From sequence record NC_028780.1: a DNA stretch of 64,000 nucleotides; one strand, 5' to 3'. The notes beneath the pieces are model-generated. The model did not search any database, had not been told where the DNA came from, and saw only the letters and a program-made list of their open reading frames with translations. The stretch's first letter is position 1. Every line of letters begins with the position of its first letter. The stretch comes from Escherichia phage slur07. Of this stretch, positions 2,372 through 61,956 are shown piece after piece. Made by a program: the position numbers and the translations under genes.

Positions 2372-2556
2372 TTACTCGCGAACAAAAGAACGAAATATTA
2401 TTTTTAGTTGGTGAAATTATTAGTTTAGAAAAGGATTTGTCTTTTGAAATATCTTCTGAATATGGAGATGCCGAAACATATTACGAATTAGTAAAATCTA
2501 TCGATAAAGTTGAAAATGATTTAGAAACATATTTAGAAAATTTAACTAAGGACTAA
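2368..2556 (+). CDS. hypothetical small acidic helical protein (paralog of previous)
   Basis: 62 aa; MITREQKNEILFL... similar to MSLSKEQKDKLFSL... Confidence 0.45.
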   Translation: MITREQKNEILFLVGEIISLEKDLSFEISSEYGDAETYYELVKSIDKVENDLETYLENLTKD

Positions 2557-2557
2557 G

Positions 2558-3139
2558 ATGGCGAGTTTAATTTTTACTTATGCAGCAATGAATGCTGGAA
2601 AATCTGCTTCTCTTTTGACTGCTGCACATAATTATAAAGAACGTGGAATGAGTGTATTAGTTCTTAAGCCTGCTATTGATACTCGCGATTCTGTCTGTGA
2701 AGTCGTTTCTCGCATTGGAATTAAGCAGGAAGCGAATATTATTACAGATGATATGGATATTTTCGAGTTCTATAAATGGGCTGAAGCACAAAAAGATATT
2801 CATTGCGTATTTGTAGATGAAGCTCAGTTTTTAAAAACTGAACAGGCGCATCAATTGAGCCGAATTGTTGATACATATAATGTTCCTGTTATGGCTTATG
2901 GGCTAAGGACTGATTTCGCTGGAAAATTATTTGAAGGTTCTAAAGAACTTTTAGCGATTGCAGATAAACTTATTGAACTAAAGGCAGTTTGTCATTGTGG
3001 TAAAAAAGCGATTATGACAGCTCGATTAATGGAAGATGGATCACCAGTTAAAGAAGGTAATCAAATCTGTATTGGTGATGAAATTTATGTTTCTTTGTGT
3101 AGAAAACATTGGAATGAATTAACTAAAAAGCTCGGTTAG
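2558..3139 (+). CDS. tk: thymidine kinase
   Basis: 193 aa; P-loop YAAMNAGKS, VDEAQF, C-terminal Cys/His zinc site (CHCG...C); matches T4 Tk length. Confidence 0.9.
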   Translation: MASLIFTYAAMNAGKSASLLTAAHNYKERGMSVLVLKPAIDTRDSVCEVVSRIGIKQEANIITDDMDIFEFYKWAEAQKDIHCVFVDEAQFLKTEQAHQLSRIVDTYNVPVMAYGLRTDFAGKLFEGSKELLAIADKLIELKAVCHCGKKAIMTARLMEDGSPVKEGNQICIGDEIYVSLCRKHWNELTKKLG

Positions 3140-4087: not shown

Positions 4088-4110
4088 AGTCTCCTTCGGG
4101 AGACTTTTTT
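4088..4110 (+). terminator. rho-independent terminator
   Basis: agtctcc-ttcg-ggagact hairpin followed by T6. Confidence 0.75.
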
Positions 4111-4932: not shown

Positions 4933-4962
4933 GTTTACAAGTTGGCAAGGTTATGGTATAGT
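4933..4962 (+). promoter_or_regulatory. T4-type early promoter
   Basis: GTTTAC 4933-4938, 18 nt, TGGTATAGT (-10 4957-4962). Confidence 0.6.
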
Positions 4963-5094
4963 AATCTTGTCAACTGCCAAGGAGAAGAGAATGAAAGTTT
5001 TGTTTGTTGTGTATGTGGTGATTCAATATAATTACCCAATGTTTACTTATAATCTGGTGAACAACATTATTGATATGATTCAGAGGAGTATGTA

Positions 5095-7641: not shown

Positions 7642-7643
7642 TA

Positions 7644-7667
7644 GGGAGCCTTCGGGCTCCCTTTTTT
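7644..7667 (+). terminator. rho-independent terminator
   Basis: gggagcc-ttcg-ggctccc hairpin followed by T6. Confidence 0.75.
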
Positions 7668-7691: not shown

Positions 7692-7758
7692 GTTTACAAG
7701 CATAAAGCTTTATGGTACTATACAACTATCAACTGATACGGATTTGGAGAATAAAATG
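7692..7758 (+). repeat. PeSL-like early promoter/leader cassette (copy 2)
   Basis: GTTTAC 7692-7697, TGgTACTAT -10 7716-7721, leader ctatacaactatcaactgatacggatttggagaataaaATG, near-identical to 34913-34979. Confidence 0.75.
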
Positions 7759-9130: not shown

Positions 9131-9191
9131 GTTTACAAGACCGTTCCTCTGTGGTACTATACAACTATCAACTACGGAGGAACAGAAAATG
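9131..9191 (+). repeat. PeSL-like early promoter/leader cassette (copy 3)
   Basis: GTTTAC 9131-9136, TACTAT 9155-9160; arms GTTCCTC 9143-9149 / GAGGAAC 9177-9183 can pair, enclosing -10 and SD; ATG 9189. Confidence 0.75.
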
Positions 9192-10186: not shown

Positions 10187-11074
10187 ATGTCAGTAGTAAT
10201 TAATAATGTCAATGCAGTAATTAAATCTTTAGTTAATAAAAAATTGAATGAATGGACTGTACTTCGTCGTGGAGAGCCAGATAAATTTTTTCATAGATTT
10301 AACCCAACTTTGGATTTGAATGTTATTGACAGAGATGTTCATGCTGAAATATTAGATAAGTTTAAAGTTGATATTGGGTTTGGATTAGATAAACATTTAC
10401 AACGAACAAACGGGTCTGGAATGGGTTTATCTAATCGCATCATGAAAGCCCTTAATAAAATTGGAGCGTTGTCTCGTATTAATGCGAGTGAAATCCTTCG
10501 CAATTATAATAAAGGATATGACCTTTATGGTCGACTAATGCCGAAATTATCATTCGATCAAATGATTGCGGATTTGTGGGAAAATCAACGACGATTATTA
10601 GCATTAGGCGCTCGATTAGCTAAAGGTCTAGATAAACAAATGATTTTTAAGACCAATAATACAGAAGACCTTAAATGCTTTAAATTTAGTATTCGCGGCG
10701 ATGATTATTATATCAGAGCTCGCTCTACAGATTATGTTAATATGGGGCATCATCTCTGTTTAGCTTTTGAAGTTTTAAAAGAAGCTGGAACGTTAGAATA
10801 TTCATCTGGTGCTAAATGCCCGATTGGTTCAAATTGCATTTTAATTTATCGCCCGGATGAATCCAGTTTAACTAAATTTCCTACAAAACCTGTACCAGTT
10901 CGTAGTAATGAAAAACATTCTGAGCAAATTGATTATTTTAATAAGCAAATTGAAGAGCTGAATATTTCTATTCAACAATATGACGATGAAATTTTCAGAC
11001 TATCTGGACTGAGTAGTAAAGCTAAATCTGAACGTGAAAAATTAATTAAAATTGTTGATTTACTTAAATCTTAA
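10187..11074 (+). CDS. hypothetical protein, tandem array member 1
   Basis: 295 aa from ATG 10187 (TGAGGAAAATATG context); C-terminal tail ...KAKSEREKLIKIVDLLKS. Confidence 0.5.
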   Translation: MSVVINNVNAVIKSLVNKKLNEWTVLRRGEPDKFFHRFNPTLDLNVIDRDVHAEILDKFKVDIGFGLDKHLQRTNGSGMGLSNRIMKALNKIGALSRINASEILRNYNKGYDLYGRLMPKLSFDQMIADLWENQRRLLALGARLAKGLDKQMIFKTNNTEDLKCFKFSIRGDDYYIRARSTDYVNMGHHLCLAFEVLKEAGTLEYSSGAKCPIGSNCILIYRPDESSLTKFPTKPVPVRSNEKHSEQIDYFNKQIEELNISIQQYDDEIFRLSGLSSKAKSEREKLIKIVDLLKS

Positions 11075-27733: not shown

Positions 27734-28442
27734 GTTTATATTTACAGTTATCATTATGCCACCTTGATAAATTTCCGAAAGTGGTAACTTTACCGCAATG
27801 GACGCAAGTACCAGTCTTTTCAGTTTTCTTGCGTCCATTTGGATTTTTCTTGCAGAAATTTCTATGCGCTGCGATAACGCATTTCTTGCCTATCATTCCG
27901 CAGAATTCGCAGGATGTTTCTTCAAGAACGATTGCTTTAAGCCCGTTTGAGATATTATTTCTGTGTTCTTTAGACATTGGTGGTCTAACTTTAGGATTGG
28001 GGTGATTTGGGCAGTTATCAAAATGCCAACGATTCATATTCCCGCTTAATCCAGACTTACCGCAATGAGGACAAGTTAGTCTTGCTTTATTAGCTACTGC
28101 ATCAGACATTTTCTTTCGTGTCTCCTGGGAGAATTCTTTATTCTTTTCTATTTCCCAGAGTTTACGACGAATCCAACCGAAAGTTTTATTGTTGCGTTTA
28201 GCGTATTTTGTGGAAACTGTCATCATGTTAGCAGCATAGACTAATTTTGGTTCAGAAGGATAAATTTTTACTAAAAGTTGATGAGCTACATAGTGCTCTT
28301 CTGGTGTTAAATCTACTAAGTTTGAGGCATCATCGCTGCCATTTAAACAGCGTGGTATAATGTGATGAGATTCAGTATAGCAATCAAGTTTTCGAGATTT
28401 AGCATTAGAGATTAACTTTTCATAAATTAGTTTATAATTCAT
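27726..28442 (-). mobile_element. free-standing HNH homing endonuclease-like gene (Mob-type), antisense
   Basis: 238 aa minus-strand ORF with SD; HNH motif ESHHIIPR...N...H; three repeated Cys zinc-finger units (CPHCGK...WHFDNC, CEFCG...C, CVHCGK...WHNDNC); convergent with 46. Confidence 0.75.
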
Positions 28443-29877: not shown

Positions 29878-30837
29878 ATGATTACCGTAAATGAAAAAGA
29901 ACACATTCTTGAACAGAAATATCGTCCATCTACTATCGATGAATGTATTCTTCCCGCCTTTGATAAAGAAACCTTTAAATCTATTACAAGTAAAGGTAAG
30001 ATTCCACATATTATTCTTCATTCTCCTTCTCCAGGAACAGGTAAAACAACTGTAGCAAAAGCATTGTGTCATGATGTAAATGCTGATATGATGTTTGTGA
30101 ATGGGTCAGATTGTAAAATTGATTTCGTTCGTGGTCCTTTAACTAATTTTGCCAGCGCCGCTTCATTTGATGGTCGTCAAAAAGTAATCGTTATTGATGA
30201 ATTTGACCGCTCAGGTTTAGCAGAATCTCAGCGACATCTTCGTTCCTTTATGGAAGCTTACAGCTCAAACTGTAGTATTATTATTACTGCTAACAATATT
30301 GATGGTATTATTAAACCGCTTCAGTCACGCTGCCGAGTTATCACATTCGGTCAACCGACCGATGAAGATAAAATTGAAATGATGAAGCAGATGATTCGTC
30401 GGTTGACCGAAATCTGTAAACATGAAGGTATTGCTATAGCTGATATGAAAGTTGTAGCAGCTTTGGTTAAAAAGAATTTTCCTGATTTTCGTAAAACTAT
30501 TGGCGAGCTCGATAGTTATTCATCTAAAGGTGTTTTGGATGCTGGTATTTTATCACTGGTTACTAACGATCGTGGTGCTATTGATGATGTTCTTGAGTCT
30601 CTCAAAAATAAAAATGTTAAACAACTCAGAGCTTTAGCACCAAAATATGCAGCCGATTATTCGTGGTTCGTGGGTAAACTTGCCGAAGAAATCTATTCAC
30701 GTGTAACTCCACAAAGTATTATTCGTATGTACGAAATTGTCGGCGAAAATAATCAGTATCATGGTATTGCAGCTAATACTGAATTGCATTTAGCTTATCT
30801 TTTCATTCAATTAGCATGCGAAATGCAGTGGAAGTGA
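29878..30837 (+). CDS. 44: clamp loader large subunit gp44
   Basis: 319 aa from ATG 29878 ([17 protein letters not shown]...); AAA+ Walker [11 protein letters not shown], Walker B VIVIDEFD. Confidence 0.9.
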
Positions 30838-34796: not shown

Positions 34797-34809
34797 TAGA
34801 ATAAATCTA

Positions 34810-34830
34810 GGGACCTCCGGGTCCCTTTTT
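34810..34830 (+). terminator. rho-independent terminator
   Basis: gggacc-tccg-ggtccc hairpin followed by T5. Confidence 0.8.
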
Positions 34831-40629: not shown

Positions 40630-40666
40630 TTTACAAGCTGACAAGACTATGGTATAGTAGTCTTGT
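40629..40666 (+). promoter_or_regulatory. T4-type early promoter with stem-loop around the -10
   Basis: GTTTAC 40629-40634, TATAGT 40653-40658; inverted repeat ACAAGAC 40641-40647 / GTCTTGT 40660-40666. Confidence 0.65.
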
Positions 40667-40687
40667 TGGTTAAATGAGGAGATTGTT

Positions 40688-44507: not shown

Positions 44508-44513
44508 ATTCAA

Positions 44514-44537
44514 GGACTCCTTCGGGAGTCCTTTTTT
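44514..44537 (+). terminator. rho-independent terminator
   Basis: ggactcc-ttcg-ggagtcc hairpin followed by T6. Confidence 0.8.
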
Positions 44538-46637: not shown

Positions 46638-46667
46638 GTTTACTTTCCTTTCTAACGATGATATGAT
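46638..46667 (+). promoter_or_regulatory. T4-type early promoter
   Basis: GTTTAC 46638-46643, 18 nt, TATGAT -10 46662-46667. Confidence 0.55.
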
Positions 46668-46693
46668 AGCTTCTGAAGTATACGGAGGCTATC

Positions 46694-47317
46694 ATGATTA
46701 TTAATCTTGCAGATGTTGAACAGTTATCTATAAAAGCTGAAAGCGTTGATTTTCAATATGATATGTATAAAAAGGTCTGTGAAAAATTTACTGACTTTGA
46801 ACAATCCGTTCTTTGGCAATGTATGGAAGCCAAAAAGAATGAAGCTCTTCATAGGCAGTTGAATAAAATCATTAAAAAGCATTTAACTAAATCACCTTAT
46901 CAGTTATATCGTGGTATATCAAAATCAACAGAAGAACTCATTAAAGATTTACAAGTTGGAGAAGTGTTTTCAACGAACAGAGTAGATTCATTTACTACTA
47001 GTTTGCACACAGCATGTGGTTTTTCTTATGTTGAGTATTTCACTGAAATAATATTTCGCTTAAAAACTGATAAAGCTTTTAATTATTCTGACCATATCAG
47101 CGATATTATACTTTCTTCTCCTAATACTGAGTTTAAGTACACGTATGAAGATACTGATGGGCTAGATTCAGAGCGTACTGATAACTTAATGATGATTGTG
47201 CGTGAACAAGAATGGATGATTCCAATTGGAAAGTATAGAATAACTTCTATTTCAAAAGAAAAATTACACAATTCATTTGGAACATTTAAAGTTTATGATA
47301 TTGAGGTAGTTGAATGA
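46694..47317 (+). CDS. modB: ADP-ribosyltransferase ModB
   Basis: 207 aa (T4 ModB length); ART R-S-E signature (LYRGIS ... STxxxxS ... EQEWMIP). Confidence 0.75.
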   Translation: MIINLADVEQLSIKAESVDFQYDMYKKVCEKFTDFEQSVLWQCMEAKKNEALHRQLNKIIKKHLTKSPYQLYRGISKSTEELIKDLQVGEVFSTNRVDSFTTSLHTACGFSYVEYFTEIIFRLKTDKAFNYSDHISDIILSSPNTEFKYTYEDTDGLDSERTDNLMMIVREQEWMIPIGKYRITSISKEKLHNSFGTFKVYDIEVVE

Positions 47318-50912: not shown

Positions 50913-51147
50913 ATTAAGTTGGTACCAATTTAAATCTCTTATGACAAATGTTAAAGCTGTCATTAAAGAAAATCAGGGTCCTGAAAATATTACTATTCGC
51001 GAAAAAGCTTTAAAGATAGTATACAGTCTTGAAGAAATACAAAAAGACATTGAATCTATGGCAAAATTTATTGATGAGCCTATCAATAAAGTTTATATTC
51101 AAGACTATACTGTAGGTCAAATTCGTGATTTAGCGAGGAAAATTTAA
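50905..51147 (+). CDS. hypothetical protein, tandem paralog 3 of 3
   Basis: about 80 aa from ATG 50905; aligns with paralog 2 (WYQFKSL..., LEEIQKDI..., IQDYTVGQI). Confidence 0.45.
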   Translation: MIELSWYQFKSLMTNVKAVIKENQGPENITIREKALKIVYSLEEIQKDIESMAKFIDEPINKVYIQDYTVGQIRDLARKI

Positions 51148-51830
51148 TGTTTGATTTTATTATAGATTTTGAAACAATGGGAAGTGGTGAAAAAGCAGCG
51201 GTTATTGATTTAGCTGTAATTGCTTTTGACCCTAATCCAGAAGTGGTTGAAACATTTGATGAATTAGTTTCACGTGGCATTAAAATCAAATTTGATTTAA
51301 AAAGCCAAAAAGGACATCGTCTTTTTACTAAAAGTACTATCGAATGGTGGAAGAATCAATCTCCTGAAGCTCGAAAAAATATTGCACCATCCGATGAAGA
51401 TGTAAGCACTATCGATGGTATTGCAAAATTTAATGATTACATCAATGCACATAACATCGATCCTTGGAAATCTCAAGGTTGGTGCCGTGGAATGTCGTTT
51501 GATTTTCCAATTTTAGTCGATCTCATTCGCGATATTCAACGTCTTAACGGCGTTTCCGAGAATGAGCTTGATACATTTAAGTTAGAACCTTGTAAATTCT
51601 GGAATCAGCGTGATATTCGTACCAGAATTGAAGCACTTCTGCTTGTTCGTGATATGACCACGTGTCCTCTTCCAAAAGGAACTTTAGATGGATTCGTTGC
51701 ACATGATTCTATTCATGACTGTGCGAAAGACATTCTGATGATGAAGTATGCTTTGCGATACGCTATGGGTCTTGAAGATGCTCCGTCAGAGGAAGAATGC
51801 GATCCTCTATCTCTTCCAACTAAACGATAA
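51147..51830 (+). CDS. dexA: exonuclease A (DEDD family)
   Basis: 227 aa (T4 DexA length); N-terminal DFETMG exonuclease motif. Confidence 0.85.
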   Translation: MFDFIIDFETMGSGEKAAVIDLAVIAFDPNPEVVETFDELVSRGIKIKFDLKSQKGHRLFTKSTIEWWKNQSPEARKNIAPSDEDVSTIDGIAKFNDYINAHNIDPWKSQGWCRGMSFDFPILVDLIRDIQRLNGVSENELDTFKLEPCKFWNQRDIRTRIEALLLVRDMTTCPLPKGTLDGFVAHDSIHDCAKDILMMKYALRYAMGLEDAPSEEECDPLSLPTKR

Positions 51831-51836
51831 AAAGTT

Positions 51837-51866
51837 GTTTACTTCCTCGGTTAGTTATGGTATTAT
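51837..51866 (+). promoter_or_regulatory. T4-type early promoter
   Basis: GTTTAC 51837-51842, 18 nt, TGGTATTAT (-10 51861-51866). Confidence 0.65.
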
Positions 51867-51893
51867 AACACCATAGCTACTGAGGATAATAAA

Positions 51894-52397
51894 ATGAAAA
51901 TTTATCGTGTTGAATCATCATTTAGTATTCTTAATTATGAAGATGCTATAACAATACGTCGAGATCTTTGTGTTCAAATAACTCCGTACAGGAGTATAAT
52001 AGATTCATGGAGTGAAGAGTGGTTATTACGCGTAGGTTATGACAGACCCAATTTTATGCATCATAGTAATGATAATAAAAGAATTCCTGTGCCGCATGAA
52101 GACAAATTATTAGTTAAAAATGCTAATATAGCAATTAATACTAATTTTGAGAAAGAAGAATATGTAGGCGTAGATCACTATATTCCAGGATGGTTTATAG
52201 CTCTTTATCATTTTGCTTTCGCTAGCGAATATGATATGATGAGATGGTTCACACGAGAAGAGCGTGAAGAATTAGCTTCTAAAGGATTTTATCTTGCTGT
52301 ATACGAAGTTCCTGAAGATGAAGTTATCATTGGTGGGCACCAAGTAATGTTCCGCAAATCCCATGCCGAATTAAAAGGCTTTATTACCTTAGATTAA
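51894..52397 (+). CDS. hypothetical protein
   Basis: 167 aa ORF downstream of early promoter. Confidence 0.45.
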   Translation: MKIYRVESSFSILNYEDAITIRRDLCVQITPYRSIIDSWSEEWLLRVGYDRPNFMHHSNDNKRIPVPHEDKLLVKNANIAINTNFEKEEYVGVDHYIPGWFIALYHFAFASEYDMMRWFTREEREELASKGFYLAVYEVPEDEVIIGGHQVMFRKSHAELKGFITLD

Positions 52398-52407
52398 AGA
52401 GAAAATT

Positions 52408-52845
52408 ATGATTAAAAATAATGCTGTTTATCAATTGAAAAAATTTGATGAAATTAAGAATTTTTCGGTACTGTCTAATACAGCTCATAATAAGTTTTGT
52501 GAACTTCTTGGTTTAACTGGCGGATATCCTTTTACTGTTATTAGTGTTAATAGCGGAATTCTTATCGGTATGATGTATATTGAAATTAGAAACTATTATG
52601 GAATGGTATCACCGCTTATTATTTATGAAAAAGATTTTAGTCTATTGACAGAAATTGAAAAACCTGAAGACCCGACTGATTTGTTGTGTAAGGCAGTTTA
52701 TATTCGTCGTCCATTCGCGAATCCGATTGGCGGTTGGGTAACTGACCAGTGGATTGAAGATGGCGTTGAACTTCTTAATGTAGTTCATGCTGGAGAGTAC
52801 TCCGTAGTTCCTCGCAGCGCAGTGATTAATGTTCGTGTAAGCTAG
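52408..52845 (+). CDS. hypothetical protein (paralog pair, shared C-terminal domain)
   Basis: 145 aa; C-terminal ..GGWVTDQWIEDGVELLNVVHAGEYSVVP.. shared with 52919..53407. Confidence 0.5.
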   Translation: MIKNNAVYQLKKFDEIKNFSVLSNTAHNKFCELLGLTGGYPFTVISVNSGILIGMMYIEIRNYYGMVSPLIIYEKDFSLLTEIEKPEDPTDLLCKAVYIRRPFANPIGGWVTDQWIEDGVELLNVVHAGEYSVVPRSAVINVRVS

Positions 52846-52880
52846 TTTACAAACTCTTGGGACCAGAGTATAATGGTCCC
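52845..52880 (+). promoter_or_regulatory. T4-type early promoter with stem-loop around the -10
   Basis: GTTTAC 52845-52850, TATAAT 52869-52874 flanked by GGGACC 52859-52864 / GGTCCC 52875-52880. Confidence 0.7.
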
Positions 52881-52918
52881 GCGGAGTATAAAATCTTTTT
52901 AACAAGTGAGAAATAACT

Positions 52919-53407
52919 ATGATTATTAATATTGGTGAATTAGCTCGTGTATCTGATAAATCCCGCTCTAAAGCAGCAGGAAAATTGGTCGAAATTGTAA
53001 GCATTCAGCTTAAACATGGCGTTAAAGATGAAGATTCTGAAGTAAAAGTGCGTATCATTCCTAAAGATGGAAAGTCTAAACCCCAGTTTGGCTATGTTCG
53101 TGCGAAATTTCTTGAATCTGCGTTTTTGAAAGCTGTTCCTGCTAAAGTAATTGAAACGATTGATACTTCACATGTAGGCGTAGACTTTAAGTGGAAACTC
53201 GGTCAAGCTATTAAGTTCATTGCTCCTTGCGAATTTAAATTTATCAAAGATGATGGAAAGGCTGCTTATACTCGTGCTATGTGTGGATATATTACCGATC
53301 AATGGGTAGAAGATGGCGTTAAGTTATACAATGTGGTATTTTTAGGAACATACAAAGTCATTCCTGAAAGTTGGATTAAACACTATAGCAATGCTCTCTA
53401 TGCATAA
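52919..53407 (+). CDS. hypothetical protein (paralog pair, shared C-terminal domain)
   Basis: 162 aa; C-terminal ..CGYITDQWVEDGVKLYNVVFLGTYKVIP.. Confidence 0.5.
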   Translation: MIINIGELARVSDKSRSKAAGKLVEIVSIQLKHGVKDEDSEVKVRIIPKDGKSKPQFGYVRAKFLESAFLKAVPAKVIETIDTSHVGVDFKWKLGQAIKFIAPCEFKFIKDDGKAAYTRAMCGYITDQWVEDGVKLYNVVFLGTYKVIPESWIKHYSNALYA

Positions 53408-53420
53408 AGTTTAAAATTTT

Positions 53421-53507
53421 TTCATAAAACTATATACATCAGTAGTTGATTATGGTACTATATCAATATCAACTACTGATACAGAAAACAACTTGGAGAA
53501 TAAAATG
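53421..53507 (+). repeat. PeSL-like promoter/leader cassette with 11-bp perfect stem (copy 5)
   Basis: CAGTAGTTGAT 53440-53450 / ATCAACTACTG 53468-53478 enclose TGGTACTAT (-10 53456-53461); -35 degenerate; leader ends ..cttggagaataaaATG 53505. Confidence 0.7.
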
Positions 53508-53774
53508 GAAAACTTAATTATCATCGAGCAATCTTTCAACGATTATGGTATGGCTTACGGTTATCGTGCGATAATGGAAGATTCTCGTGGATGTGTTATC
53601 GATATTGCTGAATGTAAAGATTTACTGCAGCTTTTGAAGATTGTTCGCAAAAATTGGGATTGTGAAAACATTAAAGCTCGTGTTGTAACGGAAGAAGAAA
53701 CTGTTTTTCATGATGTAAAATTTGCCAAAGGTGCTGCTACTCTTCTGAAACGCATCGCTCCACTGTTCAATTAA
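53505..53774 (+). CDS. hypothetical protein
   Basis: 89 aa from ATG 53505 downstream of cassette. Confidence 0.45.
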   Translation: MENLIIIEQSFNDYGMAYGYRAIMEDSRGCVIDIAECKDLLQLLKIVRKNWDCENIKARVVTEEETVFHDVKFAKGAATLLKRIAPLFN

Positions 53775-53787
53775 TGAGGAAATTGTA

Positions 53788-54003
53788 ATGAAACGTAAAA
53801 TTGTTCAGAATTGCACTAATGACGAATTTGAAGATGTATTATTTGATCCAGATTTGGTAGTAGTTCAAAAGGAACACACCATCAAGTTTACTCACTTGAC
53901 TTCGGTTTATGTGTATGAAAAGGTTGGTGATAAACAACCGATTTATGGTGTATTCCGTGAAATCACTGAAGACGGTACAACTTACTGGAAGGAAATTTAT
54001 TAA
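53788..54003 (+). CDS. hypothetical protein
   Basis: 71 aa ORF. Confidence 0.4.
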
Positions 54004-61895: not shown

Positions 61896-61956
61896 GTTTA
61901 CAAGACTGTTCTTCCGTGGTACTATTACCCTATCAACTACGGAGGAACAGAAAATG
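61896..61956 (+). repeat. PeSL-like early promoter/leader cassette (copy 7)
   Basis: GTTTAC 61896-61901, TACTAT 61920-61925; CTGTTCTTCC 61906-61915 pairs (9/10) with GGAGGAACAG 61941-61950 sequestering the SD; ATG 61954. Confidence 0.75.

Follow-up and report, generated by a model that had tools for sequence, protein, structure and literature searches.

A stem-loop enclosing the -10 element of a predicted early promoter downstream of motB in a T4-type phage

The interval between motB and the 89-aa ORF

The DNA analysed here, referred to as the window, is a stretch of 64,000 nucleotides from Escherichia phage slur07 (NC_028780.1), a Tequatrovirus (T4-type phage). Its plus strand corresponds to the minus strand of T4, and the genes around the site run in the order dexA (51147-51830), motB.2, motB.1, motB (52919-53407), an 89-aa ORF (53505-53774), cef (53788-54003), goF and gene 39. 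The product of motB is a MotB-like regulator (phrog_1671, E 3e-77), and the gene is so annotated in T4 and its relatives; its stop codon, TAA, lies at 53405-53407 on the plus strand. The 89-aa ORF, on the same strand, has no known function (phrog_3720, E 3e-46) and has cef (phrog_1354) downstream of it. The inverted repeat considered here sits in the 97 nt that separate motB from the 89-aa ORF. From 53250 to 53650 the sequence is 100% identical to that of slur02, slur04 and UFV-AREG1, and 505 phage records match it.

The T4 records NC_000866 and AF158101 carry no promoter or stem-loop annotation over this stretch. Transcript 5' or 3' ends, start or termination maps and a named promoter for the site were likewise not found in the literature searched, the reach of which was limited. 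The 'ori type 2 repeat' near motB in phage Kha5h was considered as a candidate and set aside as unrelated, being a 10-bp motif within motB.

The PeSL (promoter-early stem-loop) is a regulatory cassette that was defined in phages RB49 and phi1 and comprises an A/T-rich region, an early promoter and a stem-loop together with a Shine-Dalgarno sequence and its ATG (Arbiol et al. 2010, PMC2839356). PeSLs were later extended to the T4/PST and KVP40/nt-1 phages (Comeau et al. 2014, PMC4122927), the T4/PST consensus being TTTACW-N17-TAYWAT (PMC4122927). The gap downstream of motB holds an element of this general layout, all of it on the plus strand. An UP-like, A/T-rich region, aaaattttttcataaaact (53413-53431), recurs almost verbatim at the promoter-like sites at 7693, 34914, 47974 and 61391. 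It is followed by the -35 hexamer TATACA (53433-53438) and, at a spacing of 17 nt, by an extended -10 element (53453-53461) made up of TGg and TACTAT (hexamer 53456-53461), which fits TAYWAT at 6/6 positions. Further downstream come the Shine-Dalgarno sequence GGAG (53495-53498) and the start codon ATG (53505-53507), which together span 53495-53507 and both lie outside the hairpin described below.

A scan of the window for TTTACA or TTGACA, a spacer of 16-18 nt, an optional TG and TAnnnT places the site beside siblings at 7693, 9132, 34914, 61391 and 61897, all of which have the TG. Common to the siblings are the upstream aaaattttttcataaaact, the -10 sequence tggTACTAT (TGGTACTAT here) and a leader of the form ...ATCAACTAc/tG.... 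In the siblings the sequence ATCAACTACgG, at 9167 and 61932, occupies the same place as the 3' arm of the repeat. In architecture the site belongs with the early promoters of the phage, and a stable hairpin encloses its -10, as the initial annotation had proposed.

The same annotation held that the -35 hexamer had been lost, the usual GTTTAC being replaced by TATACA. The T4 consensus GTTTAC spans -36 to -31 (PMC1524935), so that the matching sigma-70 hexamer is TTTACA, with which TATACA agrees at five of six positions. It scores equally (5/6) against TTTACW and 4/6 against TTGACA, and in the T4 register (-36 to -31) the sequence ATATAC matches GTTTAC at 4/6 positions. The original comparison was off by one position, and in the correct register the -35 is weakened rather than lost. 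Transcription usually starts 7 nt past the -10. The start predicted at this distance is A53468, where the 3' arm of the repeat also begins.

The inverted repeat and its conservation in the T4 group

The 11-bp repeat first reported is exact, CAGTAGTTGAT (53440-53450) being the reverse complement of ATCAACTACTG (53468-53478), and the 17 nt between the arms include TGGTACTAT, so that the -10 is enclosed as described. The perfect arms are longer than first noted, extending to 13 bp (53438-53450 and 53468-53480). On the plus strand, the 5' arm ATCAGTAGTTGAT (53438-53450) falls within the -35/-10 spacer and is found at this promoter copy only, and the 3' arm ATCAACTACTGAT (53468-53480) matches the leader conserved across the promoter family. 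Since the siblings carry this leader, the 3' arm is family sequence and it is the 5' arm, in the spacer, that is special to this copy. Part of the extended -10 forms an inner helix of 5 bp (53453-53457 with 53461-53465), which brings the loop down to 3 nt; with the inner helix included, the arms measure 20 nt and are 85% complementary.

Free-energy calculation gave a stable structure for both nucleic acids. The RNA fold reaches -20.2 kcal/mol (z -5.2), with 0 of 200 shuffles as stable, and the single-strand DNA fold reaches -11.5 kcal/mol (z -5.1). The stem is A/T-rich, not G+C-rich, and no U-tract lies 3' of the hairpin, where the tail reads ATACAGAAAAC. A hairpin without a U-tract is not a canonical intrinsic terminator, and classical intrinsic termination is therefore unlikely. 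An intrinsic terminator was considered on either strand and rejected, the plus strand lacking a U-tract and the T-run of the minus strand not adjoining the stem, and the hairpin is not among the calls of the terminator scan. Rfam covariance models gave no match at gathering score over the whole window, and at 53300-53600 nothing better than chance (E above 2).

T4 has the identical element (NC_000866, 6624-6582, minus strand), and identity is at least 99% in 291 of the 534 phage records that match an 81-nt query. In an alignment of nine diverse T4-group sequences, a block of about 52 nt shows no variation; it takes in the -35, the -10 and both arms. Its flanks vary, the upstream A/T tract by indels (in the length of the T-run) and the downstream leader by several substitutions. 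Variation sets in at the two outermost stem pairs, with an A to G change in Lv5cm that gives a U·G pair. The element is constant within the T4 group, so that the covariation reported below comes from other lineages, whose stems, though non-homologous, occupy the homologous position.

Nested hairpins at sibling promoters and upstream of cef in other lineages

The initial annotation had listed other sites of similar design at 40641-40666, 52859-52880, 9143-9183 and 61906-61950, and all of these are real. A spacer permutation test over 18 intergenic early-promoter-like sites set the duplex energy that each spacer gives with its own downstream sequence against the energies it gives with those of the other promoters. 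The means were -11.75 kcal/mol for own and -7.96 kcal/mol for others' downstream sequence, and with 0 of 20,000 permutations reaching the observed value the design is common to the sibling promoters. Energies of -19 kcal/mol or lower were obtained at seven sites (4934, 9132, 40630, 51838, 52846, 53433 and 61897), and folding revealed an eighth nested hairpin at 46639.

These siblings all lie on the plus strand. The one before motB (52853-52887) encloses its -10 with the core GGGACCA/TGGTCCC at 52859-52880. Another nested around its -10, at 40636-40671, has a perfect 9-bp repeat (40641-40649/40658-40666); counting G·U, 15 pairs form at 40641-40666, and the ribosome-binding site is not reached. 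A hairpin around the -10 at 4940-4975, with 15 pairs of which 3 are G·U, was absent from the earlier list. Elsewhere it is the ribosome-binding site that is engaged. At 9143-9183 (13 pairs) and 61906-61950 (15 pairs) the spacer pairs with the Shine-Dalgarno sequence, which confirms the initial reading of the 3' arm at these two sites. Also new to the list are 51844-51886, before motB.2, where the spacer pairs with the leader and Shine-Dalgarno (17 pairs), and 46658-46701, where the -10 and discriminator pair with the Shine-Dalgarno and AUG (18 pairs). The nested hairpins thus form two classes, those with the 3' arm over the Shine-Dalgarno or AUG (9132, 46639, 51838 and 61897) and those that leave predicted accessibility unchanged (4934, 40630, 52846 and 53433).

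An upstream intrinsic terminator is present at five of the same 18 promoters (4122, 7693, 19900, 34914 and 44549). A nested hairpin occurs at none of these five and at 8 of the 13 promoters without a terminator (Fisher one-sided p = 0.029), the nested class having been assigned by eye from the folds and the terminator class by a scripted scan. Although the sample is small, this complementary distribution suggests that the nested hairpin stands in for a terminator.

Canonical, G+C-rich terminators lie at about 4089-4106, 7643-7662, 44512-44533 and 34800-34826; three of these four have TTCG tetraloops, and the one near 34800 has a CTCC loop. Their T-runs reach the next early promoter and pass into its A/T-rich region, in a classical terminator-then-promoter cassette.

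Loci from other lineages were gathered through homologues of MotB and Cef and from annotated phage records. The same architecture upstream of cef was found in Dhakavirus-type phages (L016-L022 and KIT01), in Klebsiella phage Biddle together with L050-L052, and in L045, L048 and L049. In these lineages a -35 of GTATACA, GTGTACA or GTTTACA is followed, after exactly 17 nt, by TGnTACTAT or TATAGT, and in each hairpin the 5' arm is in the spacer and the 3' arm lies directly past the -10. Their stems (GGTAGGGTA.., GGTAGGAGC.., GGGCTAT.., GGTCTAT.. and GGTGTAGGAG..) are unrelated to that of T4. Several lineages have stems of merely 8-13 pairs, G·U included, with 4-nt loops, and the Shine-Dalgarno lies outside the stem here too.

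In an alignment of 11 sequences from these lineages, the invariant promoter columns are the T and TAC of the -35, the TG, and the TA and final T of the -10. Further invariant columns comprise one G-C pair of the stem, a single leading T and the greater part of the 3' arm (CCTA). Across the 11 sequences 89.4% of the cells of the named helix are paired, and in four pairs (14 cells) both partners have changed. The helix has a covariation score of 0.389, compared with 0.170 in shuffles, of which 0 of 500 reach the observed value, and with at most 0.155 when the partners are slid. The -35 TATACA is itself found in Dhakavirus-type loci (L016-L019, L022 and L027). The suggestion that this copy may be a decaying promoter is contradicted by this shared hexamer and by key promoter bases that are invariant while the stem changes. 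One lineage (L015, L021 and L023) has a hairpin, GATAGGGTA-ATTTTG-CCCTATC, and neither promoter hexamer; a hairpin kept without a promoter points to a value of its own.

To compare the two strands, we took the eight nested hairpins of the window and 12 from upstream of cef in other lineages. The sense fold is more stable than the antisense fold in 19 of these 20 hairpins. Across the set there are 40 G·U pairs in the sense and 9 in the antisense orientation, a bias that is partly built into the promoter's own TGG/TA composition. Taken together, sense-biased G·U pairs and lineage-specific stem sequences favour an RNA structure in the sense transcript.

Interpretation of the nested hairpin

Judged by its sequence, the site is of a known kind, the subclass of PeSL in which the stem-loop overlaps the -10. 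In published PeSLs the stem-loop can be placed between the two promoter boxes, -35 and -10, or can overlap one of them (PMC2839356), the most common positions being between the boxes or over the -10, and the stems contain G-T pairs (PMC2839356). One such stem-loop reduced lacZ expression as strongly as rrnB T1 (PMC2839356). The roles proposed for them are termination or attenuation of upstream transcription and service as recombination linkers (PMC2839356). Like a PeSL, the site is intergenic, with small early ORFs on either side, and belongs to a variable (hyperplastic) region where relatives differ in gene content, and it has the A/T-rich region, the -35 and -10 boxes 17 nt apart, a stable stem-loop, and a Shine-Dalgarno and start codon on the 3' side. 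The published role of ending or attenuating upstream transcription would also suit it. It differs in that the stem-loops of T4/PST lie just upstream of the promoter (PMC4122927), whereas here the promoter is inside the stem-loop. Its stem is A/T-rich, unlike the GGGG...CCCC stems of RB49, and lacks a U-tract. There is also no recombination junction at this copy, although such junctions are a proposed and not a defining property of PeSLs.

We consider that the site is probably, if by no means certainly, a PeSL-type early regulatory cassette whose RNA hairpin punctuates transcripts reading through from motB. The UP region, the slightly weakened TATACA, the 17-nt spacer and TGgTACTAT would drive the small ORF and cef. 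The 5' arm would then be promoter spacer, and the promoter's own transcript would open with the 13 nt of the 3' arm. RNA begun at the predicted +1, 53468, would be unstructured, because that start leaves out the 5' arm. With the 5' arm upstream of the predicted start, the hairpin could form only in motB read-through RNA, which contains both arms and would fold into a hairpin of -20 kcal/mol. There it may serve as intercistronic punctuation, by attenuating or terminating transcription or by blocking 3'-to-5' decay. The result would be a delimited motB message and an insulated downstream unit, a role that falls to a separate upstream terminator at other promoters of the genome.

Two known systems help to place this model. 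Intrinsic terminators, such as the UUCG-tetraloop hairpins before 4122, 7693 and 44549, resemble it in being stable RNA hairpins at the end of an upstream gene with the next promoter adjoining, and their distribution is mutually exclusive with that of the nested hairpins. They differ in that the present hairpin has no G+C-rich stem and no U-tract and overlaps the promoter instead of preceding it. In the T4 genes e, soc, 49 and I-TevI, read-through RNA is silenced by a hairpin and an internal promoter gives translatable RNA (PMC3014915). The likeness lies in a promoter inside the hairpin region, such that the structure forms only in transcripts begun upstream. Those promoters, however, are late and their hairpins hide the Shine-Dalgarno or AUG, whereas the promoter here is of early type and its ribosome-binding site lies outside the helix.

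What the comparison adds is comparative support, from covariation and strand bias, for selection of promoter-nested stem-loops as RNA structures; in the original PeSL papers the idea of an RNA structure was inferred mainly from sequence and one reporter test. The early promoters of the window sort into three designs, one with an upstream terminator, one whose nested hairpin covers the ribosome-binding site, and one whose nested hairpin is free-standing. This sorting gives concrete mutants for T4, which carries the identical element. The finding is well supported but ordinary, and it reveals no new kind of system.

A recombination role was also raised at the outset, in the form of a hotspot at the repeat. 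On this account the cassette is a homology patch for PeSL-mediated exchange of small ORFs, and the hairpin is a by-product or a signal. RB49 and phi1 have been shown to undergo PeSL-mediated recombination and to yield mini-circles (PMC2839356). The ORF at 53505-53774 is present or deleted among the relatives, being intact in the window, RB18, Kha5h and L005 and reduced to a short frameshifted remnant in T4 (L001, about 2500-2560, minus strand), L003, L004 and L006/L007, and RB51-type phages have a motB paralog before an identical element. Identity rises abruptly from about 65-85% to 97% at the sibling cassette 52846, which fits the idea of a PeSL linker. At the present copy, however, no local rearrangement is seen other than the deletion of this ORF in T4, and the junction of the remnant in T4 and its relatives, ATGGAAAA joined to TT..., lies within the ORF and outside the cassette. 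It is essentially one and the same junction in all remnants (ATGGAAA(A) joined to TT..), with a difference of about one base in L003. The search for recombination junctions at the hairpin in related phages found no breakpoint there in four comparisons, identity being about 93-100% on both sides of the hairpin. Homology alone would also leave the compensatory changes in the stem unexplained. We regard linker function as possible but rather unlikely as the explanation of the hairpin; it is compatible with the PeSL-type reading, and this copy may or may not be a hotspot.

Two observations on neighbouring genes belong here. Identity to L003-L005 is about 65-85% over motB.1 (52408-52845) and 97% from about 52841 (motB), apparently the trace of a motB.1 allele exchange with boundaries at the promoter/stem-loop cassette of 52841-52887 and near 52361-52400 (motB.2/motB.1). 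A motB paralog, RB51ncORF010c, lies between motB and the cef-upstream cassette in RB51 (L025), pSe_SNUABM_01 (L028) and APCEc01 (L026). In RB51 and pSe_SNUABM_01 the cassette after the paralog is of T4 type and identical up to the spacer, where the fetched sequence stops before the -10.

The hairpin might instead mark a distinct kind of self-insulating promoter that is selectively maintained in the Straboviridae, with the spacer as 5' arm and a hairpin that forms in read-through RNA only and has a function other than termination. The hairpin may then be a processing or decay-barrier signal, or the site of an RNA-binding factor of phage or host. The fates of the upstream and downstream messages would be uncoupled, and the arrangement would be conserved by compensatory evolution over several genera. 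If true, this would add an uncharacterised post-transcriptional layer to the control of T4 early genes. We put it forward tentatively, as a reading of low probability.

Control at the level of DNA is very unlikely. Here the palindrome would be extruded as a cruciform or bind a dimeric protein and so occlude the -10, making the promoter sensitive to structure or supercoiling; occlusion by a DNA cruciform had been part of the initial annotation. The 13-bp arms are indeed perfect repeats that flank the -10 exactly, and the stable single-strand DNA fold given above also speaks for this reading. In the relatives, however, the helix needs G·T pairs available on the sense strand only, the antisense being weaker in 19 of 20 cases, and wobble pairs confined to the sense strand would not be compatible with a cruciform or with a palindromic site for a protein. 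Because the stems differ completely between lineages, no protein recognition sequence is conserved. Stems of 8-13 pairs with G·U included and 4-nt loops would be poor cruciform substrates, and one lineage has the hairpin but no promoter. To judge from these comparisons, it is most likely as an RNA hairpin on transcripts coming from motB, and not as a DNA cruciform, that the stem acts.

Translational gating by the mechanism documented for T4 e, soc, 49 and I-TevI (PMC3014915) is an improbable explanation of this copy, even though it is predicted at some of its siblings. The initial annotation had coupled structure to translation in general, a view that predicted accessibility supports at two of the siblings it named and not at this copy. 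Predicted accessibility of the ribosome-binding site is lower in read-through RNA than in the promoter's own RNA at 9132 (0.22 against 0.37) and 61897 (0.32 against 0.72), and also at 51838 (0.31 against 0.66) and 46639 (0.21 against 0.64), and read-through RNA at these four sites is predicted to be poorly translatable. For the copy at 53433 the predicted values are 0.50 in read-through and 0.42 in its own RNA. The 3' arm ends 14 nt short of GGAG, and the minimum-free-energy fold of 53400-53540 leaves both GGAG and AUG largely unpaired. Occlusion of the Shine-Dalgarno at this copy was rejected on these grounds, and in the other lineages the Shine-Dalgarno is outside the stem as well. By these predictions the logic of e, soc and 49 would extend to the early promoters at 46658-46701, 51844-51886, 9143-9183 and 61906-61950.

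That the repeat is an accident without function, such as a templated (quasi-palindrome) mutation might leave in a dying promoter copy, is barely credible. First-order Markov simulations predict 0.67 perfect repeats per window with arms of at least 11 bp and a loop of at most 20 nt, which makes the repeat as first described unremarkable, and the -35 is one or two positions off consensus depending on the register. A repeat of at least 13 bp, however, is expected only 0.05 times, the identical element is found in T4 and hundreds of relatives, other genera have the same architecture with covarying stems, and a distant lineage has the same TATACA as its -35. The window has other long perfect repeats, at none of the listed promoter-like sites, namely 14 bp, TTCGGTCAACCGAC/GTCGGTTGACCGAA, with a 38-nt loop at 30346-30411, 12 bp with a 19-nt loop at 27797-27839, and 12 bp with a 30-nt loop at 10383-10436.
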